Below are positions 35,569-64,000 of a stretch of DNA of 64,000 nucleotides, piece after piece; within the stretch, counting starts at the first letter, position 1, and the number at the start of each line of letters is the position of its first letter. The DNA is from Candidatus Omnitrophica bacterium UBA6253 (GTDB taxonomy: Bacteria > Omnitrophota > Gorgyraeia > Gygaellales > Profunditerraquicolaceae): NCBI GenBank assembly GCA_002441245.1, contig DJVP01000008.1, positions 234,540 to 298,539 on the forward strand. The letters are read 5' to 3'. Below the pieces are notes generated by a model. That model saw only the letters and a program-made list of their open reading frames with translations. It did not search any database and was not told where the DNA came from. Made by a program: the position numbers and the translations under genes.

Positions 35569-35610
35569 TATAATATTTGATAGTTAAAAGAAAAGAAAGG
35601 AAAGGAAGTT

Positions 35611-37174: not shown

Positions 37175-37213
37175 TAATGTCAATATTAACACCAATAATT
37201 TAAAATAATAAAT

Positions 37214-38059: not shown

Positions 38060-38061
38060 AT

Positions 38062-40198: not shown

Positions 40199-40226
40199 TT
40201 GACAGCGACGATCTAGGTGTTATACT
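40199..40226 (+). promoter_or_regulatory. near-consensus sigma70 promoter (TTGACA, 16 nt spacer, TATACT) ~270 nt upstream of the giant ORF
   Basis: cTTGACAgcgacgatctaggtgtTATACTttgg. It predicts a long 5' UTR. Confidence 0.45.
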
Positions 40227-40498
40227 TTGGTGTAAATTGAAAAGGTTGAAAAGGTAAACTTAGAGTAATCTAAGGACACAAAGCCACGGGTCCTTAAGTC
40301 AAGAAGAAGTCCCAGGGATAGCCGGGTTGCCAATAGCGACGAGAGTTGGAATTGACAACTCGATTTTATTTCAATACTTAGTAAGTAATTTTAAAAAGCG
40401 TTTATTAACTTATGAAGAAAGTGAAAGTAATAAGGTTAATAAAAAGTATTGGGGTAAGGGGAAAGATTTATTTTTTATCTAACACTATTAGGTAAAAG

Positions 40499-43400
40499 AT
40501 GGATAAACTTCAGAAACAGACAGAAGGCCAATTTGAGCAACCAGAAACCAAGCCAGAATTTAAATCTAGCTTTAAGGCTTGGATCCGCGTGGTTGCTTTT
40601 ATTGTTGTAGCGGTCTTCTTGCCAGAACAGGTAGCTCAGGCAGTAGAATATGACTGGCGTATACTTTGGAATAAGCCGGTAACAGGTAGTATAGCTCCCA
40701 GCTATTTAAAAGATCTTTCTGGTATCGATACTGCTCTAGCCATCCGTAATATTCTTAAAGATATAGCAAATAAACCAATAACCGCAATCAAAATATCGTC
40801 CAATCTGACCATAGGTTTAGATAAGCCTCTAGAAATGTCCAATCAGAAGATTGATGAAATCTTCCAATGGTTAAAAGGCCGGCCCTGTGGCTCTAAGGCC
40901 TTATATGATTATTTAAATTATACCGGCTTGAAAGTAACTGAACAAGATATTGCTATACTGGCTTTGACAATAGACATCTTAAATGATGTAGTTAAGCCGG
41001 AAGGCAACCCCGAAGTTATTAAAACTTCATTGTACGCCCTTTCTAAAACCTCTGAGTTTTTTGGCCAAAGGCTTTATTCTGTGAAATTAGACTTAAATAA
41101 CCTGGATAAGAAAATAGATCTGACTCCATTTATTGCGCATGTTAATGGCGACCACTATGTTTTAGTAACCCATATCAGTCAAGACAAGGTTTATTTTAGC
41201 GATAACCATACAGAAGAGTTTTTGCCTAAAGAGAAGTTCTTAAATGAGTTTACTGGTTATGCTTTAATTAGCAAGCCGATGTCAGTGGATTTGGAGATAA
41301 GCGTTAGTCAAGCCAAGGCTGTTTTGGGCAGCGGCAGAAACCCTGGCCGGTACTCCAACAGCGTGAATTGGTCAAAATGGTCCAAGAATATGACTACGAG
41401 TATCCTTGTTAATCTTGGCATGAATATGGTTAGTAGTTCGCTCTCTGGCGGTTGGAAGAATATCCCTAGTAAATTATATGATAATTTTGGATCAAGTATA
41501 GTGAGTGGTGTTAAATCCATGGCTGTAAGCTACGCGGTTCAAAGCTATGTTCAGGGTGTGGCTATGGAGAATAATTGGTCCTCAGATAAGGCTGCTTTAG
41601 TCGGTTCTGCTCTAGGCGGTTTTGCAGCAGGCCTAACTACCTCGATAGGGGCAATGAGCGGTAAACCTTCACTTAAACTTTCTAATTGGACTGGCGGGGC
41701 ACTTGGTAATGCATTTCTTGGGGGTGTGACTACTGCTATTAGCCAGGCTACTGCTACCAGAGTCTACCTGTCTTTATATGATAAGAATGATACGCGAACG
41801 AATGCCACTGCGCAGATAGGTTCTTTGGCTGCAGGGTTGCTTATGATGCAGGCAAGCAAAAGCTTAGTTCCCGGGGCATTTGGTATTGACAGCTCATCTT
41901 TAACCAAATCTAAAGCTCCTTTTAACTTGGGTGATTTTTGGAAAAACAATCGGACAACAATTTTCTCAGGTGTTGGTGGAGCTGCCTTAGGAGCAGCTCT
42001 TTACTCTAATAATCGTGTTGCCGGTGCCTTGATTGGTGCTGGCGTAGGTGCAGGCGCAGGGTATTTGGTGAGTAATCGCGCTGTTGTACTGGATACTATT
42101 AAAAATAATGCCATGCCTATGCTTATCGGAGGGGTTGCAGGAGCAGCTATGGGGGCTTTTACTGGTTCAGATGGTTCAGAACGTGCAATATCTGCTTTGG
42201 CCGGATTTGGATTAGGCGCTACTTCAGGGCTGTTGATCAAGAAATATGATTTTTCCGTAATGGGTGGAGTTAGCGGTGCACTCGCTGGTTATATGTACGG
42301 CGGCGATGAGACGAAAGACCGCTTACGTTCTGCAGCCCTAGGTTTTGTTGGAGGAACAGCAGTGGGTGCTTTTGTTAATATCATTGATGATATGGAGAAG
42401 AGGCCTTATATGGAAAAAGGGCTGAAGTCGCACTTAACTGAGGCTGGAAAAACATCTCCGGATGGAAAAGAGTTCCTAGGCTATGCAGAAGGAAGCGATA
42501 AATTAAAAGAATATGCAAATAGAGAATATAAATTTGAACAAGGTACAAGCTACGGTGACATTATGAAATATATTACCGTAAAATCAGGGGCTATCCTATT
42601 AGAAGAAGGTTTTCGTTCTATGAAGTATGATAAGGTTAAGAAAGAAGGGGAGTCCCGAGGGTTAAAAGATACTGACCTGGATGATTATATTGGCGATGAG
42701 ATGGGCAAATATGAAATATATTATTCCGGCCTGGGAGCCGGATATGAGATTTTAGGTACAACCAGCTATAGCAGTAAAGACAAGTGGTATACCATGCTTG
42801 GTCAAGGTCTTTTGCAGGGTGGGGTTTCCGTTGGTGTGGCAATGTTAAGAAATAAGCTTGTGAATAATTACGGAATAGACCCGGTTACTGCTTCAAATGC
42901 AACTATGTGGGTAAGCGCAGCAGGCCGGGCACTCACCGATACTCTTATTCACGGGGATTCATTTTATTATAATTCAGATGAAAAAACAGGCGAGTTAAAA
43001 GAGAGGCCGGGTTTTGGGGGATATATTCAGCAAGGTACTAACAAAGCGCTGAATTTTGGCTGGGGCGCTAAGGATAAAATGTCCGATGTAATTACTTATA
43101 ATAACTATGTTACGCAGATAGTAAATTTTGGCCAAAGAGCAGCGAATTCGGCAAATGGCGGCTTTGCTGTTGTCTATGGCCAGCACCTGGCGGATTCCTT
43201 CCATTATAGCACAGTGGAAAACAGCCTTGGATTAATAAATAATTCGTATATAGTAGCAAAGATTATTACTGGTCAAGCTTATGAGAGAGTTCGCGGGAAC
43301 ATGTCTGAATTGGCTAGCGGCGCCAAGAGCGATACCGAAGTAGATTTTACTTTGAAGCTCAAGTTGTTTGGTAAGAAGATATTTGAAGATGGCGAGTTGT

Positions 43401-46400: not shown

Positions 46401-49400
46401 GTTATAAACAGCTGGCGGCAATTGTTGAAGAATACAAGAAAAATGGCGGGCCTTCTACAGTAAGGGAACAGGTCAAGGAACGCCTTAGACGAGATATTTC
46501 TGTATTGGAAAATGAACAGCGCAGTCTTGTAGCTTCTTCAGCGGATAAAACAGAAGTAGATCTGGCGGCAAGAAAAATAGCAAAAGCAAAAGAAGCATTG
46601 GGGCTTTTGGAATCCTCTGATCCGCAAAAAACTACTCAATTAACGCGCAGGGTAAAAGACCTCGAATCTGCGTTTGTATCCCAGGAAACAAAATGGCGCA
46701 ATGAGTTGGCGCGCAATGGCGACATGCCGGATCAAGGAATCTGGGCTGGTATATGGGGAGCAGTCGCTGTTAACAGGGATGATAGTATCAGGGAGGAGAG
46801 GGATCGCAGGGCGGTTGATTTAACCTATGCACGTGTTGCATTAATCGGCTTAACTGCTACCGGAGCTAAAGATTTATATGATTTGGCTTCCAAGATTAAT
46901 AGCGAGTTGAAGATGGAGGATAGGGGGACTGCCCGCCGCCATGAAACCGAAATGTCCGCTGTTAAAGTTGACGCCAACGCCCTGTCTTTAATCATGAACA
47001 AAAAAGCGGTGGTAGAGGAAACCTTCCTTATAAAAGACGTAGGGTATGTAACCAGGGGGTATGATGAGAAAGGCAACCCTTACGAAGTGCTTACCGAACT
47101 GGCAGCCCTTAAATATGATGGCGGCCGGTATGCGCCAAAATACGCAGTAAAAGTCATTGATCTTGAGAGTGGAGGTCATATTACCGTAAAGCAGGAAGCT
47201 TTTGGCAGGACCAGGGTCTATAACGACCAGGGCGGGGAGATTATGGGTAATGTTGTTGCTAAGACCACTCAGGTTAAGGAAAACGATAATGTAATCGGCA
47301 ACATGCAAAAAGTGGTAACTCCTTCCGGGGAGATTAAATTCATTTTTCAAAGTAAAGATAGCTCTATAGGCACCCAGACAGTAGCTGCAAAAGAGGTTAT
47401 ATTTGAGCAGTCACAAGTTGATAGAATGTCTTTTAACTTGCCTAATGGAAAAGAGCTCTTTGTTGCCGCTGATGGCAAGGTAATGAATGGTTTTGAAGAG
47501 TATAACGCCAAGAATTATGAAGCAGCTGATGATGTGCAAGAAAACACATACTTCCGTTACGGCAACAGAGATATGTATTCAGGGGTTACTTTTGGACACT
47601 TTAGCAATTCAAGTGATTTAAAAAGAGACCTGGAAATAGCTTTAAGAAGTACCGGAACCGGACAGATTTCTCAAGACCGCCTCGCCAATGTGTTTGGAGA
47701 TGCCATTGAAACAAAATATATAAGCCGGGTTAACAGCCTGGCTGTTCAAGCCGGCCTTAATACCATGGATAGCAGCTCTCCTGAGTACGCAGCGGTATAT
47801 AAGAGAATTCAGCGTATTGCCCTTGGAGAATTGTATCGTGAACCTGCTGTGCGCGAGTACATGTCTAAAACAAATTTAGCCCCGGTTGCTTTTGTCGATG
47901 ATGCGATTACATGGGGTTCCACGGCTAAAGTAGGCGGTGGCGTAGGTTTAGTTGTAGGTGGCACCGTGGTGGCTGTTACAGGTGTTGGGTCGGCTCCTGG
48001 CGGTGGAATGGCAGCTGCCGGTTTGACAACTTTAGGTATTGTAGGAAGCGCTGCGGCAATTACTACCGGCAATGCGTTAATTTACAATGGTATTACTGGC
48101 CAGAACATAAGCTCAAATATCCTTCTGGGTGATTTTGCGGTTAATTTGGTTACTGCCGGCCTGGCTTCGTGGGCAAAAGTGATTACTGTAGGTACGGTAG
48201 CTGCGAACGCGACAAGAGCAGAGATAATGACTGCTAAAGTTTTAGGTTATGCAAAAACCGCTCCTACAATAGGGATTATAACCGAGAATGTGGTTAATAC
48301 CGGCAGCATATTATATAGTGGTGAATATATGAGCCCGGCAGGACGTTTGGGCATTTTTGCTACTGCAGGGATGGGGCAATATGTTTTCGCGTCAAAGACT
48401 GCCATGACGATTATGGGAGTTTCTTCGGCTGTTGGCATAGCCGATACGATAATACCATTGCATCAGTATATTGGCGTGGCCAGTAACATTACAGGAACCG
48501 TAGCTGCTCCTTATCGTGGTATTGTCAGGGCAATAGGCAGCTATTATGACAATCCGGATGCTGCGCCTGGCTGGATTTCCCGGGTATATAAAAATCAGGC
48601 CGCTGAAAAAGGTGCATGGGTTTCAAGTTTTGGCAGCGGGGTTATCTCTTCAATGGGCTGGTTTGGCGTTTCCGCGGCACAATCATTCCTGCAGGCAAGA
48701 AGCGGAAGCTATTTAATGCAATTTACGCTCAGGCCGCATGAGCCGGTTATGTCCATTATTCATTTAGCCAGCATTTTAAACAGTGATACCAGCGGCAATA
48801 GCAAGTTCACCATGATGGATGGTTTTGAATTAGCTGGTAATTTCGCAGGCGGTTTTGCAGGCCTTAAGGGGGTATCTTTACCGAAGACAGGAAGCCTTTC
48901 CCAAACAGGCAGGATAAACGGTTTAATAGATGATTTAAAAGCCTCTAATAGTTTCTTTGCGTCCGCGGTTGATATAGCGCCTAAAATGTATCTTGGGCAG
49001 GTAGGTTTTACTATCGCTACTTCTGCGGTAAAATCTTTAGCAGGTTCACAATCCTGGAGCTCCATTTTTAATAGCTTATCCGGCCAGACAGATTCCTTAT
49101 GGTCCAGCTCAATAGGTTTTGGTGTGTATGCTAAGGCCGTCGTCCCGCAGGTAAAGTCTATAATAAGTAAGTCAGCATTAGCAAAGTCACCGATTACTTC
49201 TTCTCTTGCCATTGGCGGGGTATCCGGAGGAATGGCCACCTTTATTGATTATGCAAACCATAGCATTTCCAACTTCTTTAGCGATAAAAAAGACAGCAGC
49301 TATAGCCTTACCAGAGGAGCGATAGTATTTGCTACGGCATTCCTGGCTGGCAGCGCCCTTGCTTACGGCAGGTCAAAATTAGCTTCAACAGGAAAAGCCA

Positions 49401-55400: not shown

Positions 55401-58400
55401 TTCCATACCAGGTACAGGAAGCACTCGCGAAAGTAAAAGAGCAGGAAAAACTTATCAATATTGAAGATTCTGCTATCAGGGATCTTGTGTTTGCCGGCAC
55501 AGCACGGCAGAAAATTGAAGGCGGAACATATGTTGGCTTTATGGGGCGCGCGAAAATAGAGGTTCCCGGCAATTTCCATACCGGACTCCGTAATAAGAGA
55601 GGTTCTGAAGAAAAAGTCTCTCCTCACCAGGTAGGCTTTGATAATCCTGAAGACGCTCCTGATTATAGCCGCCTGCTTACAACCTATACGACCAATACTA
55701 ATACATATGGTGATATTACTGTTGAAGTCTTCCCCTCAAAGAACGGGCTTCATAAGTATTCGATATTCCGTGATTCACTTGGCAGGATATGGTTTGGGCA
55801 TGTGGAGAATGGCGCCAAGATTAACTCTATGGGGATTAGAGGCAATTGGCTTGATTTAGGTGATTTAAATACTCCGGCTTTTGAATATGCGCAGCAGGCA
55901 GACGGTTATGGTAACTTTGATCTTAGTAAAGGGAACTATGTGGATATGTTTAAGAATTATTTAAGCAAGATCCCTGTTATCCAGGAATACATGAAGGTTC
56001 GTATGGGCGCCTCTTCACCGGTGGTTCATGAACAAAGAAGCGAGATAATCGTTAATGCCCTGAAGGCTTTCTTAGGTGCGTCAAGCGTTAATACGATTGG
56101 CGGCCAAGGCATAGGCAAGGCCCCAGGCAACTCTTCTTCACCCATTAAGGCAATAGCCAGATTTATGGTGCTACCTTTATTGGCTATGGGGTTATCTTTA
56201 GCCGCGCCTTCTTTAACAATAGCGCAAAGCTACCAGCCTGCTAAGCAGGGTGTTGTAGCTGAGGCCAAGAGTATCAATGTTAAGCAGTTCAAAGGGATTA
56301 AGATAGCTGGCTTTAGTGCTGAAGATTCGACTGCTATTGTTAAGTCGTTAAAAGAGATTAATGATAGGGCTCCGTTGTTCTTGCAGTTAGCCAGGAGAGC
56401 AGGCCTTGAGTTCGTCAGCATTAAGGGCCATGGCCTCCAGTTTACTGCCGGGCAATTAGAAGGCAGCCAGGTAAAATTGTATGATGGCAATTGGCAGTTG
56501 AACAAAGATTTAACAGGCTTTATAAGCCATGAAGTTGGGCATCTTGTATATAATAAACTTAACTCTAACGGCCAGTTAGGCGAGGCATTAAAGGCTATAG
56601 AGAAGAAATACGGAGTTGATGAGGCAACTACCGGCGTTGATAGCGCAGGCCGCAAGTTTATGATTGTTTTTGGAGGCAAAAACGGCGTTTATGGCGGTTC
56701 ATATGAATTCATGAATAAATATAATCCAATACCGTTTGGCAGCGTAAATACAGATGAATTGGCAGCTGAAATATTCCGTATGCGCGTTAAGCCCGTTGCC
56801 GGTTTTGAAGAGAATTCATTCTTACAGGAATTAAATGGTGTGATAGAAGAGTATCTAAAAGGCCCAAGCGGCTCATCTTCTCCTATTCAGTTGCCTGGAG
56901 AAGACAGGCAAGGCGAGCCCGTACGCGGGCAATCTCCTGCGCTTCCGCTGGTTCCCGGGCAAATACCTGTTCCCGGCGTTAATGGCGGTGCCTTAGGAGC
57001 GGTTATTGGAGGCCTAAGTATGACGACAGCCGTCGCCAGTAGCCCTATTGACTTAGCTGTCCCTGTGCTTGCTACAGGCAGGGTTAATTTAGGTAATATA
57101 AGGGCGCAAGTCCCGATTATAGATGGAACAGTAACTGCCCATGGCCCGCCTGCTGTTAACACGACAATCTCTCTCTCAAAGATTGGTCGCGAAATAAATG
57201 CGAGAGGCAAATCAGGTATATTAGTAGTTGTATCAAGTAGTGTAGTAAAGGCAGATGCCCAGAGTGCAACCTTCGGAAACGAAGAAAGAGGGCAGGGTGC
57301 AGAAGGTGCATCCAGTAATATAGGTAATGCGGCTGTCAAGGCCGTACGCAGCACTGATTCCAGGGTTATGCCTGGCAATAGTATAGGTAATAAGATTGCC
57401 AGAATAATCAGCAGAATCACATATGCCCAGAGTGCAACCTCCAGAAATGGAGAAAGAAGGCAGGATACGAAAGACGTATCCGGAAATAAAGCTAATACGG
57501 CTGTCAAGGCCGTACGCAGCATTGTTCCGCAGGCTGCTGATGTAGCAGCTGATTCAGTTATCTCAAACGAAATTGATGCAGAAAATGCATCGGTTCCGAC
57601 CTTCCCGAGGTCTGTATCTGTTTCCTCAAGCCCAGTAGAAACAAATGGTAATGGCAGGACGTTATTTGGCCGTTTATCCGCCTTCCTTAGTAATGGCCGC
57701 TCCGCAAAGAAGGTTTTAACTGTTGAAGAGATATTCCATCTTTTGACCCGCTTACAGGCTCAAAAGCTATATCGTAATCAGCAAAAGCGCGGGCTTGATG
57801 TTCCTGAAAAAGACAATTATGACATGTCCAGCCAGCAGATAAAGGTTTCCGTATCTGACCGTTTAAAAGAGCAATTAGAAGACTATTCAGATTCCAGGTT
57901 AGGAAAGTGGTTTAATGCCGCTAATTTATCCGATACAGAATTAAGCAGTATGGACATTGAGGATGTAGAGACATTATTGGATAGAGGTTTAAGGAGAGCT
58001 GCTGAGCTTATTACTGAACTGGGCAGGGTAAGTGAGTTTAAGGTTCAGGAAGGCGGCTTAACTGCGGCGGATGTAGAGCGTATAATTGAAACTAAGATAG
58101 GCGGTATTATTGATGCTAAAATAGCTCCGATAGCTAAATTAGCGCAGGAAGCAGATTTAAAAGCAACCGATGCACGTAAGCGCACCGGGGCAGAAGATTG
58201 CTTGATTGGTGCGATTACCGACAAAGAGGTTAGAGAGGAATCTGACCGTCGTCTTCGTATTGAAGCAGGCGTAGAGTTTGGCCCATACGTAGTTAAGGAT
58301 CTCTATACCGGCTTACAGATTATTAACCAGGTTTATGATGAATTTATTGCTAAGTATGAAAAAGAAGGAAACCAGAAGAAAGCTGATGCTTTAAGGGATG

Positions 58401-61400
58401 AGAAATTAGCTGCTATAAAGGCAAATGAAACTATGGCTGTTGATATACTCAACAAGTATGCCGGCAGGATTAGTATTTTAGCTCCTCTTGATAATAATCA
58501 ATACCACGTTTTACAGGTAATGAGCTATGATGCTGAAACAGGAGAGATCCTTTATGTTGAAGATAACGGACAGGGTAATTCTACCGGGTATGGTAAGATT
58601 GTTTTGGATAAGATAGCAAAGATTAATGGTGAATATGTATTTATTGTGCAGGAAAGCGTGGTTAAAGAGGCAGAATTAAAGGATAATTTATTAAGCGATG
58701 AAGAGCAGAAAGAAATTAAGAATGTTGGTGGTACTGGTTCAACTGGCAGCGGCTCTTCAAATGGCGGCTCATCTGGCGGAGCGCAGGGTGGAACAGGTTC
58801 TGGTGCAGCAGGAGCTGGCCAGGGTGGCTCAAGCCCTGCCGGAGCAGGTTCTGGAATAAATGGCCTAGTTGATGATGATGACTATCTGGATAACAGGCTT
58901 TCTAGAAGTTCGACTTTATATATAGGTAGCACAGATCCTTTGTCAGCTCAGAATGTTCAGCCTGAATCCAGGGCTCCTCCGGCTGGAGAACAGGCATATC
59001 CTTCAACTTTAACTAATTCATCCATAACCGATGCTTCTATCCAGAAATCATCCCAGGAAGTTTATAGCCAGAGCGAAACAGTTTTAGGCCTGGTTTCCGC
59101 CGCAGGTAACAACACCTCTACTACTTTAGATAGCCTTACAGAGGAGCAAGAAGCCGCAGTAAGGCTACTTAACCGTTTTATCCGTTCTCCGATAATGGAT
59201 AATTTAGCCCGCCGTGAAGAAGAAGATTATATGGTTGTTATTCTGGATAAACTGCTCAAGGCTATTAAGACCCGTGGCTTGGATCTTCATGGCCGTTATT
59301 TCCGCGCCGCACGCTTAATTGCGTATAGATTTGGGCTTCCTTATTCCTCTATGATACAGTTAGCCACCGCGTTCATCTTGTTAAATGAGACTGATTCCTT
59401 TATTGAGGCATTAAAAGAAGAGCAATCCATTAGAGCGGAATTAGCCGCGGTAAATACCAAGGGTACGACCGAAGCAGTTGAGGCAGTAAGCGCGGAGCCA
59501 GAGAAAACAGCAGTTAATTTTGATTTATTAGCCAATATCCGTACTATATTAGCTTCCGTAAGCAAATTAATAAAAGAAAATATAAATCTTCTTCCCGGGA
59601 ATGTCCAACCGGCAAGCTCTCCAGTTAAGAAACTCGATGTAGTGTTTTATTCTTCTGAAAGAGCTGATCGGAATGGCACATTCTCTAACTTATTGGATCT
59701 TGCCCGAGATTTAGGGCAGAGAGTTTATGACCTGGCATTCAGGCTGCAACAATTTACTAATGATCGGCCGGAAGACTTAATCGTAGTTGACGAACGCGGA
59801 AGCCGCTTGGAGATTATCTCTTCTGAAGAGGAAATCTCAGAGCATGGAGTAATTTTAATTAGCGGCAGCTCAGCAGATAATGACGAAGCAACCCAGGAAA
59901 ATATCGCAAATTCTTTTGCAAAGGTATTCCCGCAGGCAAACAGAATTCTTGCTCCGAGAGTCCCTGCTGGGGCAAGGTCGGTATTTGATGCTGACGCTGA
60001 GGCTTTAGTATCCAGCCAATCTAATGATCAAAATGCAGGGTCATTAGCTGTTCAGGATGCAACAACTGTTCAGGCAGAAAAAGAAGCTGTCAATGTAATT
60101 GGTGCTGTTGATAAAGAAGTGAGCGTAAATAACCGCGAAGTTCATCAGGCAGAGTCGAAGATTGTTAAAGAGATTGTTAAAGCAGGCAATATATATCAGG
60201 AAGCTAAACTGGCTTTAGCAAAAGTATTAGGTAAGGTATTACATGTCGTATCGGAAAAGGTCTTGGGAGCTATCGCATCCTTAAAGCAGGTTGCTTCATT
60301 TATTAATGGCAGTGCGCATAAGGATGGAATTCCGTTTACAACTACGCTTCCTGTTAACGTGGCCAATGCCGTAGTAGATTTTACTTTTGTGATTAAAGCC
60401 GCTAATAACAGATTTGCTCAGCAAGGCCTGGTAGCAGCATTAAAGAATTTGGAAGTTTCTTCGCCTGTTGAAGCTGAAAGAGAAGCGCATGTAGAGCTGT
60501 TGAAGAGAAAATCTGAAGGTATCGGTACTGCCATTAGCATCAAGGCTCCTCCGGTTTATTCTCCTGTCAAGTTTAACGCGGGGTCAGTTAAACGTGTGGG
60601 AATAACCAAAGGAGGAACAAATGGTAATCATACAGAAAATTCAGGAAATGAAAGAAGCAATCGCAGAGTTGGAGAATCAGTACAATATAAGACGGTTACA
60701 GGAAATGAGAGAAGCAGCAATAGTGGAATTAATGAATACGAAAAACGTCTTAGCTACGAAACCGAATTAAAGGGCCGTCTTTATACATTTAATATAGGTA
60801 AGGCCGACCAGGCTAAACTTGGCGTACATCCTGTGCGCGCCCCGCCTTACGCAGCCTTCGTAGCTAAGCTGCACAATTCCGCATTATCCAGAACCTTCAA
60901 TTCAAATAATCCATTAAATTTAAACCAGCCGCATTCTCTTTCCGTGGCAGGAGAGTCGTTTGCGGCTAATGTTGTTAAGGGCGGTGCAAGAACCCTCCTC
61001 CGGGGATTGACCCTTCTTGTTACCGCCCTTACAACAATCATAGGAGGTGCACTATGTGCCCTATCAAGATTGATGAGATCAGGATTGACCACATCGTTGA
61101 CTTCTCTAAGGACCACACTACCTTTGCAGCCGCGCGTGAAAACAGCAGCGGGCATCTCAGGATATTCCTCGTTAATGATGTTACCGGTACGGTTTATGCC
61201 CGTAACGGCCGCGCTGACAGTTGGGAAGAGCTCCTCGGCGTTAAATGCGAGCTTGTCCGTATCAAGATTACTGAAGCAAGAGGTTTTGGCGTTCCAGTCT
61301 ATAGAATTAACGCAGAACACAATTAATGAGGAGATCCTTGCCTCTTCTAGCCCCGTCAGAGACTATGCCAATAAGAATTATCTTCGCTCCGGGGCTAGAC

Positions 61401-64000
61401 GTAATTATAGGTATGCTTATAAAACTGAAGCGAGTGTATTCGTTAAAGTTGTACAAGTATTGGGAATAGCGGTTATTGCCCTGTTGTTGTTCTTTATGGG
61501 TTACAAGTATGTTAGCTATATATCCAGCCAGGACAAAATAGCCCTTAAGACTTTTGATGTTATGCAGGCACATACAAAACAAGACAGGAGCATAAGAGAG
61601 TTTGCAAGGGAGTTCTTCCGCTTGTTTGACAATATCGAGTTTTCCGATGGGTTGGAGTTCGGATTGATTTCAAGCCTGGTGGAGCCGTTAGAGAAGCTAA
61701 AGATGAACAGGAGCCTGGTAATAAAAGAAGCCAATGCTCATAGCATAGATCCTAATCTGCTTGCGGCTATCCTGACAGCCGAAAGGCTTGATATGAACCC
61801 ATTGAAGCGCGCCGCAGATTTTACTATTTTTGTCCGGTCGAAGACTTCAGGCGGCTGGGGCCAGGTAAGGCCTGAAACAGTCAGGTTCCTTATAAGCAAT
61901 GGAAGGATTGATAAAAAGTACGCGGCGTATAGCAGCTACAAGCTCGCTGAGGAAATAAAGAATAATGATCAATTCAATGTAATGTGCGTTGCGGCATATT
62001 TGAAGTTCTTGGTTGATGAGGCAGAAAAGATCCAGGGATCAGGCGACCGTTATGAGTTTATGAAGAAGGTGGCCGCAGGCTATACCGCAGACTGGCGCAG
62101 GATGAAAGAGGGTTTATTACAGCCTCCTTTCGATGCTAAAGAATATAAAGAAAAAACAGGAATTGATTCCAGCCGGGCGCAGGCCGCGGTTTATGCTGAG
62201 CTTGTTGCGGCCTTATATAGGCTAATTGAGAAAAATGACTTAACCGGTACTTCCAGCCCGGTTACAAAATCCGAAGATCCACGCATTAATAATTTAAGAA
62301 GGGATTTGAATTCTGACAACAGGTTAATCCGTACCCGCGCAATTAATAATATAAGAGATTACAATTTAGCGAATATCTTCGTGGAAGAACTGCTTGCTTT
62401 AATCCGTGAGCAGGAGGAAGCGAGCAGGTATAATTTAACCAGCAGGGAAGGCAAGGAATGGTTCCATGTTAAGATGTTCGCGATTCAGGCGCTGGTCAAT
62501 TTAGATGAGAAGGTGATAGGGCGCGCTAAGTTTGAAGAAGTTTTAGGGGTTATTAACAGCCAGCATGGCATTGGAAGCGAAGCCGGATGCGTAAAGGTGA
62601 TGGCGAAAGGCGCGTATCAGTTACTGACTGAAGCCAGGAATGGTACTTCCAGCCCGGTTGCAGCGCAAATTTTGATTGTAGATGACGAAGAGATGCAGCG
62701 TGATTTAGTCAGGATGGTTCTTGAGATGGCAGGTTATAAGGTAGAAGAAGCGGTAAATGGAAAAGAAGGTTTAGAGAAATTTAAGGCAGGAAAGTTTGAC
62801 TTAGTGGTGACGGATAATCGTATGCCTGAGATGTGCGGTACGGTTTTAATCGGGGAATTGCTCAAGATTAATCCTGAATTGCCGATTATATTTATGAGCG
62901 GCACAGAGATAGTAACTGAAACTCAACGCATAAAGAATGTCAGCAAGCCGTATAATATTGGCGTATTTACTAAGAAAGTTGCGGAATTATTAGCGTTGGC
63001 TCAATCTTCCTCTAGCCCTGTGGGCGCCGCGGTTACTACGGTTTTGAAATGGCTGGTTTTAAGGAGCGAACAGACCTCTGGCGTAATTAATAGCAGAGAG
63101 TTAGCGCTGTATGCCGGTATATCCCAGGATGAGGTCGCGAGGCTGGTTAAGCAGGTTAATGATTCAGGCAAGGTCAGGTTAATCTCTAAGGACGCAACGA
63201 ATTGGAGAATAGAGGTGGTTTCCTCCAGCCCGATCTCCCTTAAGAATTCCGGAGCAGAGGAGTTACGCGCGGCGCTAAAGAATTGGGCGGCAAGCAATAA
63301 ATTTGAATTTCTCTTCCAGGATACAGTTTGGCAATTAACTAATCCCGGCATACTTCGTAAGATAGAAAAGGCCGGTGAATTAGCCGGGTTTATTTTATAC
63401 TTTGCAAGCAATTATATATCTATAAAGTCGTTTATTGTTGCCCCGGGCATGAGGGGCCAGGGGATAGGCACAGAGGTTATGAATTTAATTGTCAGCGAGA
63501 ATCCTAATAAGGACATTGTTACTGATCCTTTGAGCCAGGCAGCGGTCAATTTCTATAAGAAGCTTGGATTTAAAGAAGATTTTGGCGGTAATTACGTAAG
63601 GCCTGCCGGAGTAACCTCCAGCCCGGCAGTTGCTCCTGATTTTAAGCATAAATTAACAGAGGTATTAGCCGCGTTAGGGATTAACCAGGAATCAGTGGTC
63701 AATAGCTTTGACAGGGTGATGTTAAGAGGTGAAAGAAACTATTATCCGGATGGGTTATTTAAAGATAATGCAGCGTATTTACAGTGGGTATCAGAGGCAG
63801 TGAGTTTTCTTGCCAGAGACGGCAGGCATTTGCCTATATTGAGGATGCTTATTTCATCGCTTTACCCGGAATTTGATCTATCAAAAATTCCCGGACAAAA
63901 TATGTATGCCTGCCCTGCTAACGCTTTACTTGGCTATATCTTTATGGCCCTTAAGTTTGCACCACGTAATATTGCCGCGCTTGCCTACTATAATGAGAAT
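40499..64000 (+). CDS. giant multi-domain protein, 3'-partial: one open reading frame of at least 7,834 codons running off the window end
   Basis: ATG at 40499 sits directly after an in-frame TAA (40493-40495), with an AGGT SD-like element upstream. I checked frame 2 (positions = 2 mod 3) by hand at the start, 40861, 41101, 41941, 45541, 47881, 54421, 56461-56521, 60541-61380, 61741, 62641, 63361 and 63901-64000 and found no stop. The ORF track lists no frame-2 ORF on the + strand anywhere in 40.5-64 kb, which it would if a stop existed. Only short antisense or off-frame ORFs occur there. Confidence 0.8.
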   Translation, partial: MDKLQKQTEGQFEQPETKPEFKSSFKAWIRVVAFIVVAVFLPEQVAQAVEYDWRILWNKPVTGSIAPSYLKDLSGIDTALAIRNILKDIANKPITAIKISSNLTIGLDKPLEMSNQKIDEIFQWLKGRPCGSKALYDYLNYTGLKVTEQDIAILALTIDILNDVVKPEGNPEVIKTSLYALSKTSEFFGQRLYSVKLDLNNLDKKIDLTPFIAHVNGDHYVLVTHISQDKVYFSDNHTEEFLPKEKFLNEFTGYALISKPMSVDLEISVSQAKAVLGSGRNPGRYSNSVNWSKWSKNMTTSILVNLGMNMVSSSLSGGWKNIPSKLYDNFGSSIVSGVKSMAVSYAVQSYVQGVAMENNWSSDKAALVGSALGGFAAGLTTSIGAMSGKPSLKLSNWTGGALGNAFLGGVTTAISQATATRVYLSLYDKNDTRTNATAQIGSLAAGLLMMQASKSLVPGAFGIDSSSLTKSKAPFNLGDFWKNNRTTIFSGVGGAALGAALYSNNRVAGALIGAGVGAGAGYLVSNRAVVLDTIKNNAMPMLIGGVAGAAMGAFTGSDGSERAISALAGFGLGATSGLLIKKYDFSVMGGVSGALAGYMYGGDETKDRLRSAALGFVGGTAVGAFVNIIDDMEKRPYMEKGLKSHLTEAGKTSPDGKEFLGYAEGSDKLKEYANREYKFEQGTSYGDIMKYITVKSGAILLEEGFRSMKYDKVKKEGESRGLKDTDLDDYIGDEMGKYEIYYSGLGAGYEILGTTSYSSKDKWYTMLGQGLLQGGVSVGVAMLRNKLVNNYGIDPVTASNATMWVSAAGRALTDTLIHGDSFYYNSDEKTGELKERPGFGGYIQQGTNKALNFGWGAKDKMSDVITYNNYVTQIVNFGQRAANSANGGFAVVYGQHLADSFHYSTVENSLGLINNSYIVAKIITGQAYERVRGNMSELASGAKSDTEVDFTLKLKLFGKKIFEDGELLSKAPQQENLKTKIDGIVFNKDEGYRLITNIDKPGEGIYYYETQRESNSSPLPEKNRALTNTDVYAISVPIPGIEDKAYGKLYKGVFEVDYLGQDSNGRASFLGLAGAPGSKVTLDLNTAVLSPALTAKIQPLIAGNHEGKITITTTRDNNITLSFGKAGADNKLVAENTATISRAELAEFKQALAPWRDYRGAGFSEIVAQDKKVSHVNSPTGFLTNGLMVNSSPLELNNVKINGTLSHQIESAKIEMWQSLDNSNKWNIHPLTNLLTVATISGGVSLLPEKADSLYFYKQADRSRFGILLNVQNGIGVNSFFSAANSQEAKVNKPNILDYKYNFFGEGAQSSLFGFNGLTQKSPFGYFAYNYQDSIKVKDELDLLAKEKEPAETPISGELTSTFIQTNGSFDKQTETFKVDNAMIMPGSTLQIELGQDQDGKWRATSLHEADKAKFSNFLTAQLPAKFEKAVKENKLTNYIVEIQRIKPGEYNVNFFKNSADREAIRQIGTNSPLVMKIDEADLNDLVKAGVPIGDNLLFNVQGTINYKRNNEGNYVSDIIYQQKNLEQPALVMPTKATSIEAKAAGVSGGEGVVNVKLFTFNQITYNAEKNSNTFSLYPLALLQGEGTLSSTYLNNMNKTPIDSVFFNIKSPSLAPEMGVIARVTRGTDDTIFHNRNLAPTPTSSGAATSTTQANESAIPTRAPLTDLNVIKTHSDAVIELGKGTNLQMLLGVTEINGVQVWQAQSMAGFIGNTITLQKDTSVVWGETLSYKGKEKDVFATFHIGEEKRDGKLVPIIDRVTSKINFERKDIAIGDKDVTLLGTLQQGKNRKVEQKFEKIKFGDREYGIKMQVNDGFLIKGAQSKFYIIGKGFQNEAKITTEDGRTFTLKAGKSAGISVFDETGKKQVGALTDKGIVFFEIDKIRASMQELAGFFEKSEASGADFDKARNIFGRARKAFNEGDYVNAIDALNKASKEATRQQNKNLMEQLRTQNLIPAGYSLDKDAQNGYKQLAAIVEEYKKNGGPSTVREQVKERLRRDISVLENEQRSLVASSADKTEVDLAARKIAKAKEALGLLESSDPQKTTQLTRRVKDLESAFVSQETKWRNELARNGDMPDQGIWAGIWGAVAVNRDDSIREERDRRAVDLTYARVALIGLTATGAKDLYDLASKINSELKMEDRGTARRHETEMSAVKVDANALSLIMNKKAVVEETFLIKDVGYVTRGYDEKGNPYEVLTELAALKYDGGRYAPKYAVKVIDLESGGHITVKQEAFGRTRVYNDQGGEIMGNVVAKTTQVKENDNVIGNMQKVVTPSGEIKFIFQSKDSSIGTQTVAAKEVIFEQSQVDRMSFNLPNGKELFVAADGKVMNGFEEYNAKNYEAADDVQENTYFRYGNRDMYSGVTFGHFSNSSDLKRDLEIALRSTGTGQISQDRLANVFGDAIETKYISRVNSLAVQAGLNTMDSSSPEYAAVYKRIQRIALGELYREPAVREYMSKTNLAPVAFVDDAITWGSTAKVGGGVGLVVGGTVVAVTGVGSAPGGGMAAAGLTTLGIVGSAAAITTGNALIYNGITGQNISSNILLGDFAVNLVTAGLASWAKVITVGTVAANATRAEIMTAKVLGYAKTAPTIGIITENVVNTGSILYSGEYMSPAGRLGIFATAGMGQYVFASKTAMTIMGVSSAVGIADTIIPLHQYIGVASNITGTVAAPYRGIVRAIGSYYDNPDAAPGWISRVYKNQAAEKGAWVSSFGSGVISSMGWFGVSAAQSFLQARSGSYLMQFTLRPHEPVMSIIHLASILNSDTSGNSKFTMMDGFELAGNFAGGFAGLKGVSLPKTGSLSQTGRINGLIDDLKASNSFFASAVDIAPKMYLGQVGFTIATSAVKSLAGSQSWSSIFNSLSGQTDSLWSSSIGFGVYAKAVVPQVKSIISKSALAKSPITSSLAIGGVSGGMATFIDYANHSISNFFSDKKDSSYSLTRGAIVFATAFLAGSALAYGRSKLASTGKASWLTSEYASYPAITGLSSLAGASAGNTFARDGYQANLWASALVPATLTLMAKISSNMDAAKVNPIESGQAPAFWKTLVNRVNPAGKFERLTVDGKLGGYKWGLNLKGTVPVTAVGLSLLVENVPLPKEYNAWRTVASTTLRTIALIHVGLGLEGKRGGSSGLSAAWYRMKVNGAPDAFLRKASWAKGTWDWSGVASNASVLGSAGALAWLMNSKSISENTKTSLIVASIAALALGMGGYKQSFKSLVKPIWTDNIIAKNGRILKLNEAGKPVRTELTASAFSRFLYSNPVAKVGLSRGAVWGGISTYAVLGPDKLPVVGFEKKHIVVALMATALLGPGIKPGLAQLGRAYNLLKGETTFETVNGKLVIKTAGPGVLAYDIAKTALPTIPSIAIGMAAMPDLQNLVHSLSDTSFNNLLKSTFNLDDVKQQYIQLGCGTEADFQNKSFTQVQAEMMVKQIEVQKAASSNKDEIDKLEDSRKYYSGVVERGETGWNSAFMWQLRANSANEGAKVALWFGPSLYFIKPFLEVGLRRIPVVGDMQAFMGEGMGKKGMGDSLTWFKTDSKLGNVIHGTIGRIESIIMEEQVRENVFDTFFKMPLKQSGFEPASPTDTKRYAFQQQLFENLQESNERSGALSISAMNTRVINVMISQGATLMVAPESSVSNGAEIDAINQDFKNGNSAQALQRLSQLPEGSSVRIHVTTGNGFLPVGLYEFKVENEAEWAQPLQIRAQAETFQQQLVAGQISALELAQIAEGATAVTGNSVGNIAPSINRDAARYTLAQAISADAVPLLVDQQQPGKIIFTDSNNQQNTVTVSAQNLMPFIQERRAYDTNFDAGVRQAHQQYRAQVIFPAQATAPVSNLFNFVNTNSTIATVPSQNLNNQRLDTLRLNTLDASERFYNLHSQMIATNDWLMESDLHRSGRVFGSFTAEGKIDKAAKKLAYENQLHKFGADITSGTQKALVAVQALLGFGLGAQIKQQVTQEKRLTAEAGLREIVKKLDSLKAAKGNLPAYRTALVDTFGFTAENVKKLSDEALQMQYDFHLMALKAQHKQIKSFNKKLVSSRGNLRSLLVADFRQNQANLQELSTLLAEAGVSQDILGADFSAGISKDYKGRNARVFVSENSVVKVFDLSSLPEDARDRARIKIEDRYRRGLNGLSVAGAVTRSGNNLIITQARVTTVAEEMMKLHAAGKLAEMNTLLEKLAQLGQDLSAQGYQWSPATSGNMLDNLGLDDQGNITVVDLSAIQTTANPDDAQAIWVARLKQDAGTYSTERLSASKATINAFDTYFNTHSAMVTRGEQLLAPFVKGNVRIDSSNIVGLNPALTTGVENVVNAAVKKVLGKDSDLRGLQVNFMPFAGDLQFEWDVNADGGLTLSLNPAVLANPELLEAVVEHAFDKRSNRQFAADRALDFMTRLRHVSGGIITAPLINLNSWLTTSQVNRLTFTEIGQRAGDLAQALGLPIDLLTRRLPHTAVGAIVNAFDINNHARQSLNTQFRLRAEAALAPMIRFWAGTNWGQRFDTMDYRAQGISQHAIDPFILSQKTLGEIFELDANGQVIGIKNIDARAQSFTAASQKAVAVRLPALFEETKKSLLKNAQQLGLSTEAQTKLRALTIEQVLGANKGDWANKVQIRIALPEELDHMGFGETKQGSRQIWVNSRFIDLETGEISKELLNDVLAHEATHVIADLIASELTAQTGSPVNTGIAIGQEGNESLVDKIAGNKRSNLGNHLYINLGRLRNIGNAGGFGNVGGGTPGLGDGVGGTAGGVGVNSGASIPEVEPPEIEIPKVEPTKVEEPAPSPVVEETLSSSSSKLNKAIAALAASLIKAKNYVTSFHPVDRLVNLVKGIRNSISNALNARFERIKQQAAETPAVLVPVEQLEIKKVDNQEAVEVLSIADIHGSPIEGQSLTTGIIDANGLTPKYKVEVEDVTYYLSAPYDLGGGRIAVLAFLREGDRFVARTYYRSNSAVEFRYLPNYTYNEELKEIVHYDKGFGEDSLGVPYQVQEALAKVKEQEKLINIEDSAIRDLVFAGTARQKIEGGTYVGFMGRAKIEVPGNFHTGLRNKRGSEEKVSPHQVGFDNPEDAPDYSRLLTTYTTNTNTYGDITVEVFPSKNGLHKYSIFRDSLGRIWFGHVENGAKINSMGIRGNWLDLGDLNTPAFEYAQQADGYGNFDLSKGNYVDMFKNYLSKIPVIQEYMKVRMGASSPVVHEQRSEIIVNALKAFLGASSVNTIGGQGIGKAPGNSSSPIKAIARFMVLPLLAMGLSLAAPSLTIAQSYQPAKQGVVAEAKSINVKQFKGIKIAGFSAEDSTAIVKSLKEINDRAPLFLQLARRAGLEFVSIKGHGLQFTAGQLEGSQVKLYDGNWQLNKDLTGFISHEVGHLVYNKLNSNGQLGEALKAIEKKYGVDEATTGVDSAGRKFMIVFGGKNGVYGGSYEFMNKYNPIPFGSVNTDELAAEIFRMRVKPVAGFEENSFLQELNGVIEEYLKGPSGSSSPIQLPGEDRQGEPVRGQSPALPLVPGQIPVPGVNGGALGAVIGGLSMTTAVASSPIDLAVPVLATGRVNLGNIRAQVPIIDGTVTAHGPPAVNTTISLSKIGREINARGKSGILVVVSSSVVKADAQSATFGNEERGQGAEGASSNIGNAAVKAVRSTDSRVMPGNSIGNKIARIISRITYAQSATSRNGERRQDTKDVSGNKANTAVKAVRSIVPQAADVAADSVISNEIDAENASVPTFPRSVSVSSSPVETNGNGRTLFGRLSAFLSNGRSAKKVLTVEEIFHLLTRLQAQKLYRNQQKRGLDVPEKDNYDMSSQQIKVSVSDRLKEQLEDYSDSRLGKWFNAANLSDTELSSMDIEDVETLLDRGLRRAAELITELGRVSEFKVQEGGLTAADVERIIETKIGGIIDAKIAPIAKLAQEADLKATDARKRTGAEDCLIGAITDKEVREESDRRLRIEAGVEFGPYVVKDLYTGLQIINQVYDEFIAKYEKEGNQKKADALRDEKLAAIKANETMAVDILNKYAGRISILAPLDNNQYHVLQVMSYDAETGEILYVEDNGQGNSTGYGKIVLDKIAKINGEYVFIVQESVVKEAELKDNLLSDEEQKEIKNVGGTGSTGSGSSNGGSSGGAQGGTGSGAAGAGQGGSSPAGAGSGINGLVDDDDYLDNRLSRSSTLYIGSTDPLSAQNVQPESRAPPAGEQAYPSTLTNSSITDASIQKSSQEVYSQSETVLGLVSAAGNNTSTTLDSLTEEQEAAVRLLNRFIRSPIMDNLARREEEDYMVVILDKLLKAIKTRGLDLHGRYFRAARLIAYRFGLPYSSMIQLATAFILLNETDSFIEALKEEQSIRAELAAVNTKGTTEAVEAVSAEPEKTAVNFDLLANIRTILASVSKLIKENINLLPGNVQPASSPVKKLDVVFYSSERADRNGTFSNLLDLARDLGQRVYDLAFRLQQFTNDRPEDLIVVDERGSRLEIISSEEEISEHGVILISGSSADNDEATQENIANSFAKVFPQANRILAPRVPAGARSVFDADAEALVSSQSNDQNAGSLAVQDATTVQAEKEAVNVIGAVDKEVSVNNREVHQAESKIVKEIVKAGNIYQEAKLALAKVLGKVLHVVSEKVLGAIASLKQVASFINGSAHKDGIPFTTTLPVNVANAVVDFTFVIKAANNRFAQQGLVAALKNLEVSSPVEAEREAHVELLKRKSEGIGTAISIKAPPVYSPVKFNAGSVKRVGITKGGTNGNHTENSGNERSNRRVGESVQYKTVTGNERSSNSGINEYEKRLSYETELKGRLYTFNIGKADQAKLGVHPVRAPPYAAFVAKLHNSALSRTFNSNNPLNLNQPHSLSVAGESFAANVVKGGARTLLRGLTLLVTALTTIIGGALCALSRLMRSGLTTSLTSLRTTLPLQPRVKTAAGISGYSSLMMLPVRFMPVTAALTVGKSSSALNASLSVSRLLKQEVLAFQSIELTQNTINEEILASSSPVRDYANKNYLRSGARRNYRYAYKTEASVFVKVVQVLGIAVIALLLFFMGYKYVSYISSQDKIALKTFDVMQAHTKQDRSIREFAREFFRLFDNIEFSDGLEFGLISSLVEPLEKLKMNRSLVIKEANAHSIDPNLLAAILTAERLDMNPLKRAADFTIFVRSKTSGGWGQVRPETVRFLISNGRIDKKYAAYSSYKLAEEIKNNDQFNVMCVAAYLKFLVDEAEKIQGSGDRYEFMKKVAAGYTADWRRMKEGLLQPPFDAKEYKEKTGIDSSRAQAAVYAELVAALYRLIEKNDLTGTSSPVTKSEDPRINNLRRDLNSDNRLIRTRAINNIRDYNLANIFVEELLALIREQEEASRYNLTSREGKEWFHVKMFAIQALVNLDEKVIGRAKFEEVLGVINSQHGIGSEAGCVKVMAKGAYQLLTEARNGTSSPVAAQILIVDDEEMQRDLVRMVLEMAGYKVEEAVNGKEGLEKFKAGKFDLVVTDNRMPEMCGTVLIGELLKINPELPIIFMSGTEIVTETQRIKNVSKPYNIGVFTKKVAELLALAQSSSSPVGAAVTTVLKWLVLRSEQTSGVINSRELALYAGISQDEVARLVKQVNDSGKVRLISKDATNWRIEVVSSSPISLKNSGAEELRAALKNWAASNKFEFLFQDTVWQLTNPGILRKIEKAGELAGFILYFASNYISIKSFIVAPGMRGQGIGTEVMNLIVSENPNKDIVTDPLSQAAVNFYKKLGFKEDFGGNYVRPAGVTSSPAVAPDFKHKLTEVLAALGINQESVVNSFDRVMLRGERNYYPDGLFKDNAAYLQWVSEAVSFLARDGRHLPILRMLISSLYPEFDLSKIPGQNMYACPANALLGYIFMALKFAPRNIAALAYYNEN
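40800..41280 (+). other. papain-like (C39-like) cysteine peptidase-type domain inside the giant ORF
   Basis: QWLKGRPCGSKALYDYL has Gln 7 residues before Cys (Cys codon 40886-40888). ...AHVNGDHYVLVTHISQDKVYFSDN has the His codon at 41153-41155 followed by Asp. The order Cys, His, Asp is as in C39/transglutaminase-like folds. Confidence 0.5.
54437..54451 (+). other. HExxH motif (HEATH) inside the giant ORF, candidate zinc-metallopeptidase site
   Basis: cat gaa gca acc cat, in frame 2. Context: NDVLAHEATHVIADLIAS. Confidence 0.4.
56528..56542 (+). other. second HExxH motif (HEVGH) inside the giant ORF
   Basis: cat gaa gtt ggg cat, in frame 2. Context: LTGFISHEVGHLVYNKL. Confidence 0.4.
57256..57521 (+). 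repeat. intragenic imperfect direct repeat, two copies of ~100 nt with 169-nt period
   Basis: gcccagagtgcaacct and cggctgtcaaggccgtacgcagca recur at 57256/57425 and 57329/57498. The minus-strand antisense ORF 56887-57522 shows the same duplication. Confidence 0.6.
62669..62998 (+). other. CheY-like receiver (REC) domain embedded in the giant ORF
   Basis: ILIVDDEEMQRDLVRMVLEMAGYKVEEAVNGKEGLEKFKAGKFDLVVTDNRMPEMCGTVLIGELLKINPELPIIFMSGTE...SKPYNIG. All canonical positions are present: the DD pair, the phospho-acceptor Asp, Thr and Lys. Confidence 0.7.
63250..63600 (+). other. GNAT-type N-acetyltransferase domain embedded in the giant ORF
   Basis: FIVAPGMRGQGIGTEVMNLIV is motif A (R-G-x-G-I-G). 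AAVNFYKKLGFKED is motif B. Confidence 0.55.

Follow-up and report, generated by a model that had tools for sequence, protein, structure and literature searches.

A giant Omnitrophota gene with a predicted riboswitch leader, an anchored C39 peptidase domain and modules parted by a short SSP motif

The 64,000-nucleotide stretch of DNA analysed here (the window; contig DJVP01000008.1, positions 234,540 to 298,539 of the forward strand) ends within one open reading frame (ORF), which begins at position 40499 and runs on past the window edge, and this 23.5 kb open frame is the genuine 5′ part of a giant protein-coding gene of a class that has been described before, the Omnitrophota giant genes. The reading that we prefer, with a probability of roughly 0.8, is that of a real gene of this known class, preceded by a riboswitch leader and encoding an N-terminal membrane anchor, a C39 cysteine peptidase domain and modules parted by a short SSP motif, whose product has a role in contact or attack at the cell envelope and is probably self-cleaved. 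The surface- or attack-related function that a preliminary description of this DNA had suggested agrees, by analogy, with what has been proposed for such genes. The host, as far as can be judged from sequence, is an uncultivated Candidatus Omnitrophota bacterium: the TadC and CpaF proteins encoded in the window exactly match NCBI proteins named Candidatus Omnitrophota or Omnitrophica bacterium.

40499-64000, + strand: giant ORF, 7,834 codons, with its 3′ end past the window edge

A six-frame translation of these 23,502 nucleotides gave 7,834 codons and 0 stops in frame 2 (40499 mod 3 = 2), still open at the window end, as the preliminary description had stated. In the same interval, the two other frames of the + strand contain 585 and 802 stops, and the three frames of the − strand 408, 219 and 554. 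With the stop frequency of 0.062 per codon expected from the regional base composition (about one every 16 codons), log10 P of meeting no stop is −218, and the earlier judgement that chance is effectively impossible as an explanation holds. The start ATG (40499-40501) had been said to follow an in-frame TAA immediately; in fact, one AAG codon lies between it and that TAA (40493-40495). It had also been noticed that the ORF listing contains no frame-2 ORF on the + strand in this region, and indeed no + strand ORF of at least 100 residues is listed past 38919, because the listing omits ORFs running off the source.

Comparison with relatives indicates that the frame is maintained by selection on the protein. 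Against a related genome (L011), with which the product shares 92% identity across 4,535 residues, the ratio of non-synonymous to synonymous substitution rates (dN/dS) is 0.15 overall and 0.09-0.20 in each full 500-codon block over codons 1-4527, and against an ENA contig that is 98% identical (L002) it is 0.10. The GC content is uniform along the ORF (42-47%), and neither tandem repeats (Tandem Repeats Finder) nor internal repeats (self-BLASTP) were found in it. Independent assemblies carry the same DNA: window positions 28062-48919 are 100% identical to NCBI contig JAQUMA010000002.1 (GCA_028718365.1), in which the giant gene is called for 5,224 residues up to the contig end, corresponding to window position 56170; a second NCBI metagenome-assembled genome (MAG), GCA_028712745.1, has identical 5′ DNA with the gene called over 2,576 residues; and two contigs each from Logan and JGI, as well as one from ENA, carry the 5′ part too. 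For the later part, a JGI contig of a different organism (L007) is open throughout its available 21,161 bases and is collinear with residues 5455-7718, at an identity of only 30-39%. The 160 kb contig of a third NCBI MAG (L013) carries a 5,202-residue ORF, ended by the contig end, whose product (P0023) joins the same N-terminal anchor and C39 domain, in one ORF, to modules matching residues 5889-6351 and 6675-6920. In all, a protein search of a representative library returned 23 relatives of the giant protein. Because of selection, the independent assemblies, the flat composition and the collinear homologues, a chimera or a frameshift-masked operon is very unlikely.

The product begins with two elements:

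40574-40633, + strand: N-terminal hydrophobic anchor, residues 26-45 (Kyte-Doolittle 2.0; kept in L011 and P0023)
40856-41284, + strand: Peptidase C39 domain, residues ~120-262 (Pfam E 1.5e-11; Cys130, His219, Asp235)

The anchor had been recognised in the preliminary description, and AWIRVVAFIVVAVFL occupies residues 26-40. The second element belongs to peptidase family C39 (PF03412, 42.6-44.7 bits against a cut-off of 22), its His and Asp align to those of ComA in a PDB search, and the cysteine peptidase, whose activity is predicted from these features, is apparently active. Pfam and NCBIfam matches in the giant protein fall on C39 (residues ~176-260), the glycine zipper (487-527), Response_reg (7391-7477) and GNAT (7612-7694).

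Towards its other end, the protein takes on a different layout, in which domain-sized modules alternate with copies of a short motif:

56012-63628, + strand: beads-on-a-string region with 12 SSP[V/I] and 2 SSPA motifs, modules of 41-401 residues

The 14 motifs, 12 of them of full form [S/A/T]-S-S-P-[V/I] and two SSPA, start at residues 5172, 5213, 5460, 5514, 5710, 6111, 6373, 6654, 6950, 7252, 7384, 7505, 7576 and 7707, all within residues 5172-7710, and SSP[V/I] has 0 copies in residues 1-5100. In shuffled sequence, 0.1-0.2 copies of SSP[V/I] are expected, with a maximum of 3; the motif is enriched about 40- to 100-fold. Codons vary between the copies, and therefore selection acts on the protein; for this reason a nucleotide-level repeat was dropped as an explanation of the motif, and an internal start site was dropped as well, no Met following the motif in this sequence. 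Single domains lie between motifs, namely a receiver domain (7388-7504), a GNAT domain (7580-7706) and a muramidase with a transmembrane segment (6954-7251). The relatives show the same arrangement: L007 has 10 copies of SSP, several of them at homologous places; the 23 relatives contain 43 SSP[VIM] against 1.0 expected, with 0 copies in controls of 11.8 thousand residues of other window ORFs and 11.8 thousand residues of unrelated proteins; and BLAST homology blocks with the relatives repeatedly stop within a few residues of a motif. In P0031, a whole starch-synthase-like unit is enclosed between two motifs. The extended form [S/A/T]-S-S-P-[V/I/M] occurs in L007, P0013, P0025, P0029 and P0031; it is not universal, since P0023, P0016 and P0033 have no SSP motif although modules are shared. 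The motif may be a processing site or a conserved linker. A second short motif, R/L-[A/G]-P-P, is present at residues 6159, 6683 and 6781 and in many homologues (P0015-P0033), where it is 2- to 10-fold over shuffles and often stands directly before a hydrophobic segment (e.g. HPVRAPPYAAF); X-P-P motifs are ribosome-pausing sites dependent on elongation factor P.

The modules strung between the motifs include several of enzymatic type:

58181-58678, + strand: module A, putative internal C39-like papain-fold domain, residues ~5895-6060 (Cys5901, His6003, Asp6022/Asn6023)
60485-61345, + strand: module B, the most widely conserved module, residues 6663-6949 (RAPP, transmembrane segment 6837-6855, conserved Cys6853)
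61436-61492, + strand: strongest transmembrane segment, residues 6980-6998, opening the muramidase module (Kyte-Doolittle 2.67)
61688-62278, + strand: predicted Tse3-like (lysozyme-fold) peptidoglycan muramidase domain, residues 7064-7260 (Glu7095 in ILTAERLD; GWGQV motif)
62660-63010, + strand: response-regulator receiver (REC) domain, residues 7388-7504 (Pfam E 3.5e-19; Asp7439, Ser7467, Lys7483)
63236-63616, + strand: GNAT acetyltransferase domain, residues 7580-7706 (Pfam E 1.6e-9; RGQGIG at 7652)

Module A came to light through conservation and structure prediction. In 7 of the 23 relatives, the region matching residues 5880-6075 keeps an invariant Cys (Cys5901), a His about 100 residues further on (His6003) and an Asp or Asn about 20 further, and an AlphaFold2 model built with the 7-row alignment reached a predicted local distance difference test score (pLDDT) of 85.3 and a predicted template modelling score of 0.81, which points to a C39-like fold with a plausible catalytic triad. 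Module A has no sequence-level similarity to C39, and its membership of peptidase family C39 was not upheld for want of such a link. Module B is matched by about 17 of the 23 relatives. As to the muramidase, a profile of residues 7050-7260 and their L007 counterpart matched the Pseudomonas aeruginosa Tse3 structures at E 2e-12, Glu-containing motif included, and it is through this profile that a match to the Tse3 catalytic domain with its conserved Glu was obtained; the giant sequence by itself gave no match to the Pfam Tse3 model. In homologues, Pfam T6SS_Tse3_cat (PF22115) scored 27.3 (L007), 26.7 (P0015) and 25.5 bits (P0034) against a cut-off of 27, and a single-sequence AlphaFold model of the muramidase region had a pLDDT of 45. 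In five relatives, the muramidase module begins with RR-x-F-[LIM]-K and a hydrophobic stretch, resembling a twin-arginine translocation (Tat) signal, and in three of these five the Tat-like RRxF[LIM]K lies 5-25 residues past an SSP-type motif. The receiver domain matches CheY structures at E 4e-13 and is 73% identical to the REC domain of L007. REC and GNAT come after the muramidase without a transmembrane segment in between; the muramidase and REC/GNAT cannot both be in their usual compartment unless the chain is cut. The Tse3-like muramidase would give sequence-level support to the idea of cell-wall attack.

The gene also appears to have a regulatory leader of its own:

40199-40226, + strand: sigma-70-like promoter TTGACA-16-TATACT with extended −10 TG (11/12 matches; kept in L011 and L002)
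40244-40335, + strand: predicted riboswitch aptamer of the cyclic di-GMP (c-di-GMP)-I clan, best Rfam model RF03167 (c-di-GMP-I-GGC), full-length match
40343-40371, + strand: terminator-like hairpin GAGTTG/CAACTC (40343-40361) with a T run, the likely expression platform

From its sequence, the first of these is the predicted promoter of the giant gene itself. In an Rfam scan, RF03167 scored 62.4 bits (E 2e-12), the gathering score of the model being 59; a score above gathering, a position in the 5′ leader and an expression platform, as in riboswitches of the c-di-GMP-I clan, are all present, and ligand binding is predicted. The start codon lies 165 nucleotides downstream of the aptamer. The aptamer was also found in L011, L002 and L004, and the 311-nucleotide leader is 98% identical to that of L011, compared with 82% nucleotide identity for the Tad locus; as a family-wide feature the riboswitch was dropped, being absent in L013. 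In the minimum free energy fold, the 3′ half of the aptamer pairs with the 3′ arm of the terminator as an alternative pairing, and the modelling tentatively suggests that ligand binding favours termination. Relatives carry REC-GGDEF modules within the giant protein itself, and PilZ genes have been described downstream of giant genes (West-Roberts et al., 2023, 10.1101/2023.11.21.568195). A riboswitch would be a handle on when so costly a gene is expressed.

In the explanation that we prefer, a second messenger would control the synthesis of the giant protein along with that of the adjacent Tad pilus. The protein would be inserted in the cell envelope and, in analogy to what has been proposed for Velamenicoccus archaeovorus and its relatives, would serve to make contact with a host or prey cell and to attack the wall of that cell; its own cysteine peptidases would probably divide it into several working pieces, and the best candidates for the sites of cleavage are the SSP motifs. 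Several observations weigh against this explanation. More than 90% of the product has no family match, and its function is proposed from a few domains and from the literature; REC and GNAT, being domains of cytoplasmic type, fit a purely extracellular role poorly; SecA_DEAD, glycosyltransferase, NUDIX and dockerin, the marks of two named subtypes, are absent from the part seen. The riboswitch exceeds its gathering score by only 3 bits, its best model is the GGC variant, and the distant homologue in L013 lacks such an element upstream. Finally, since the best NCBI contig stops at 56170, no independent assembly covers positions 56171-64000 with near-identical sequence. An assembly or sequencing artefact, in which a chimeric contig joined ordinary genes or indels removed stops, would be favoured by this end of the longest public contig with identical DNA, by the absence of the window-end 42-mer from genome and metagenome collections and by the appearance of the SSP motif only from residue 5172 onward. 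However, the motifs at residues 5172 and 5213 precede the NCBI contig end, so that the change of style falls within a contig that was assembled independently; the composition does not shift; purifying selection acts in frame over codons 1-4527; the independent L007 is open for 21 kb and collinear with residues 5455-7718; P0023, encoded on an NCBI contig of 160 kb, has the same N-terminus joined to the same late modules; and 7,834 codons could not stay open under random indels. An artefact is, in our opinion, extremely improbable.

A much stronger competitor, which we nevertheless hold to be unlikely on balance, is a single uncleaved polypeptide acting as a membrane-anchored coat or adhesin, in which the enzyme-like modules are accessory and SSP is a favoured linker. 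V. archaeovorus has been proposed to wear its giant protein as a coat, giant ORFs have been proposed as adhesins, and P0023, P0016 and P0033 share modules without any SSP motif; yet a mere linker would have no need of an exact core of 4 residues that persists in homologues only 30% identical, adhesin-type repeats or domains were not found, two Cys-peptidase domains with conserved catalytic residues stand in a protein of only 8 Cys, and the muramidase module has an export-type signal and is followed by REC and GNAT with no transmembrane segment between. A further alternative is a MARTX-like multi-effector toxin, which would be delivered to a target cell and there have its effector modules freed by a cysteine protease domain. 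Domain-sized modules between conserved short motifs, Cys-peptidase domains, a muramidase resembling an effector of the type VI secretion system (T6SS) and adjoining secretion and pilus genes all speak for it, but RTX repeats, a C80 cysteine protease domain and type I secretion system (T1SS) genes were not found, several strong internal transmembrane segments speak for a protein that stays in the membrane of the producer, and REC and GNAT look like housekeeping signalling parts rather than toxins, so we give this toxin a slim chance. The reading of a self-cleaved envelope protein can be carried further, to a polyprotein that would be cut at [S/A/T]-S-S-P-[V/I/M] by the N-terminal C39 domain and module A, with the muramidase exported and REC/GNAT left inside, and with a cyclic-dinucleotide riboswitch switching all of this together with the Tad pilus; in this complete form it is a speculative proposal, and we regard it as rather doubtful. 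If true, it would answer an open question of the literature, i.e. whether and where the giant proteins of Omnitrophota are cleaved, the lack of information on cleavage points having blocked a domain-by-domain analysis of giant proteins (West-Roberts et al., 10.1101/2023.11.21.568195).

By itself, the giant ORF is one more partial example beside hundreds already catalogued, and its value is in the details that make the open question testable. The SSP motif offers concrete candidate cleavage sites, which can be checked in existing proteomic data of V. archaeovorus and, more generally, the motif, the second peptidase-like domain, the muramidase and the riboswitch are testable handles on processing and regulation. 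In the key papers on Omnitrophota giant genes, the SSP motif, the Tse3-like domain, the second C39-like domain and the riboswitch have no mention.

Between the C39 domain and the late modules extend about 5,000 residues without a recognisable family, including the glycine-zipper and Gly/Ala-rich hydrophobic stretches:

41957-42385, + strand: glycine-zipper region with weakly hydrophobic segments, residues 487-629 (Pfam Rick_17kDa_Anti, glycine zipper 2TM, E 7e-8; hydropathy)
47930-50593, + strand: Gly/Ala/Ser-rich region with about 9 moderately hydrophobic segments, residues 2478-3365 (hydropathy scans only; no family match)
54437-54451, + strand: HExxH motif 1 (HEATH, residue 4647; motif only, SprT-like E 0.2, no PDB match)
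56144-56221, + strand: transmembrane segment, residues 5216-5241 (Kyte-Doolittle 1.9)
56528-56542, + strand: HExxH motif 2 (HEVGH, residue 5344; motif only, Peptidase_M48 E 0.1, no PDB match)

Throughout the protein, transmembrane segments were called by a Kyte-Doolittle hydropathy scan only. Peaks of at least 1.6 fall at residues 27-49, 611-629, 2478-2499, 3292-3310, 5216-5241, 6833-6855 and 6980-6998; past the anchor, four of the segments are strong (2478-2499, 5216-5241, 6833-6855 and 6980-6998), and many weaker ones are Gly/Ala-rich. The Gly/Ala/Ser-rich region of residues 2478-3365 is possibly membrane-embedded or membrane-active. Of the mosaic of domain types read by eye in the preliminary description, C39, Response_reg and GNAT were recovered with Pfam and the 'SLT' domain as a lysozyme-like, Tse3-type one; a zinc metallopeptidase was dropped, the two HExxH motifs giving E values of 0.1-0.2 (SprT-like 0.2, M48 0.1), far under cut-offs, and PDB searches being empty, and a winged-helix assignment was dropped with no significant support. 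Cys is extremely scarce, with 8 in 7,834 residues; two of these occupy the putative catalytic positions in the peptidase-like domains, and another, Cys6853, is conserved in module B. Judged by eye only, residues ~4080-4230 (52736-53188) resemble a small kinase-like fold (VVKVF ... NMLDNLGLDDQGNITVVDLS), with no database support.

The sole internal duplication found in the giant ORF is imperfect, of 105 nucleotides (57252-57356 and 57420-57524, 82% identical, 168 nucleotides apart). Divergence from L011 is mosaic: between window 40499-54100 and L011 10001-23612, the first 1,000 codons have a synonymous divergence (dS) of 0.66-0.81, against only 0.1-0.3 from codon ~1000, a drop which suggests recent recombination between lineages inside the giant gene. 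The true stop codon and the 3′ end were not found in any collection searched: genome and metagenome contig collections do not contain the exact 42-mer with which the window ends, a protein search with the last 1,500 residues gave no self match, and look-ups via TadC, TadB and the Y1 transposase fragment led only to contigs ending within the gene (5,224, 2,576, 1,668, 486 and 448 residues). A word-indexed protein search returned 0 matches for the muramidase region and one fragment for module A. The taxon labels of the relatives conflict (L011 'Planctomycetales', P0001 'Desulfobacteraceae', L012 Omnitrophica), which was taken as binning or labelling noise.

The location of the gene directly downstream of a Tad/Flp pilus locus, pointed out in the preliminary description, was confirmed by Pfam matches and pilin-like N-termini:

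23618-38919, + strand: Tad/Flp pilus locus, directly upstream of the giant gene

It encodes RcpC/CpaB, an RcpA-type secretin, a TadZ-like ParA-CpaF ATPase, DUF192, Flp-like pilins, TadE/G-like proteins, TadB and TadC, and the order of Tad locus followed by giant gene is kept in L011 and L013. Two of its proteins are unusual fusions (24600-28356), i.e. the secretin with a C-terminal TonB_C and the CpaF ATPase with an N-terminal ParA/TadZ-like domain (719 residues). At least 7 tandem small genes at 31334-33106 encode Flp-like pilins with the processing motif G-Q-S-x-x-E-Y (GQSxxEY), and a 763-residue protein with no family match and a highly charged, E/K/R-rich, coiled-coil-like middle is encoded at 28794-31085, in a gene with an internal 114-nucleotide repeat (29266-29379 and 29539-29652, 86% identical). 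The gap of 1.5 kb that separates tadC from the giant gene holds a 64-residue remnant of an IS200/IS605-type Y1 transposase (39078-39272; Pfam Y1_Tnp); this gap is not kept in L011, and L013 has there ORF6N genes and a ParE/Phd toxin-antitoxin pair. On the other side of the Tad locus, an operon on the − strand (18467-22111) encodes a FIST-domain protein, a histidine kinase and a REC-GGDEF response regulator and might be where the c-di-GMP signal comes from; a tRNA-Glu (CTC) lies between this operon and the Tad locus (22166-22242). Further away, positions 472-17376 carry genes for four B12-binding radical SAM proteins, four SPASM-type radical SAM proteins, GT2 glycosyltransferases, GDSL esterases, a polysaccharide deacetylase and a PMT_2 (GT39-like) membrane glycosyltransferase, a run that looks like a glycan-modification cluster.

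Among known systems, C39 domains occur in bacteriocin/PCAT ABC exporters (ComA, PCAT1) and, as a C39-like domain, in HlyB, but here the domain has no ABC transmembrane domain or ATPase, and a double-glycine leader substrate is not evident for the giant protein; NCBIfam models of PCAT/bacteriocin ABC exporters scored 15-18 bits against cut-offs above 500, over the C39 part only. Likeness to Tse3, the T6SS effector of P. aeruginosa (PDB 3WA5, 4LUQ), extends over Tse3 residues 227-337, with ILTAERLD against IILAEQRD and a shared G-x-G-Q-V, and the aligned Glu7095 is what we take, from the Tse3 literature, to be the catalytic one; unlike Tse3, the domain sits inside a giant protein behind a transmembrane or Tat-like segment, with no T6SS or immunity gene nearby. 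The leader resembles the c-di-GMP-I (GEMM-I) riboswitches of pilus, adhesin and motility genes in having an aptamer between promoter and terminator, directly before a surface-related gene, and differs from them in that the GGC variant is the best model, the regulated gene is of at least 23.5 kb and the element is absent in L013. With MARTX toxins the giant protein shares a logic, as an analogy only, of very large size, modules as large as effectors, a cysteine protease within the chain and short sites between the modules; in contrast, it has internal transmembrane segments and no T1SS, and no Pfam or NCBIfam match to RTX repeats or to the inositol-phosphate-activated C80 cysteine protease domain.

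Among the giants known in the Omnitrophota are the V. archaeovorus protein, of 39,678 residues, and the 'Archaeovorins', a subtype with a length above 30,000 residues (West-Roberts et al., 2023, 10.1101/2023.11.21.568195). The 7,834 residues seen here have no SecA_DEAD (no Pfam or NCBIfam match to such a domain in residues 1-7834, although one could lie past the window edge), glycosyltransferase, methyltransferase or NUDIX domain, and no glycoside hydrolase save the muramidase-like module, the homologue fragment P0031 having a starch-synthase-type unit. Pfam matches to dockerin and TSP3 repeats, which mark the Dockerin-type giants, and internal or tandem repeats are likewise absent, and the part seen cannot be assigned to either subtype. 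The architecture, which the preliminary description did not recognise, matches the published pattern of Omnitrophota giant genes. In this pattern, giant ORFs above 20 kb are found in 77 of 116 Velamenicoccia species genomes (Seymour et al., 2023, PMC10066038), and a single ORF of this kind, open for 23,502 nucleotides, is present here; an N-terminal C39 domain beside a signal or anchor, many transmembrane segments and CheY-like receiver domains have been described (West-Roberts et al., 2023), and here the C39 domain is near the anchor and multiple transmembrane segments appear in the hydropathy scan. A C39 architecture cluster of 24 proteins is also known, REC occurs in 105 and GNAT in 93 long proteins, and 13 of 14 giants have genes for secretion or pili at their flanks, a Tad cassette among them (Nielsen and Lui, 2026, 10.64898/2026.06.07.730766), the neighbour in this case being a complete Tad-type set. 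The gene is like the Omnitrophota giant genes in its phylum, its anchor-adjacent N-terminal C39 domain, its transmembrane segments, its mostly unannotated sequence and its receiver and GNAT domains, as well as in the neighbouring genes of Tad or type II secretion system-like type and the transposase remnants.

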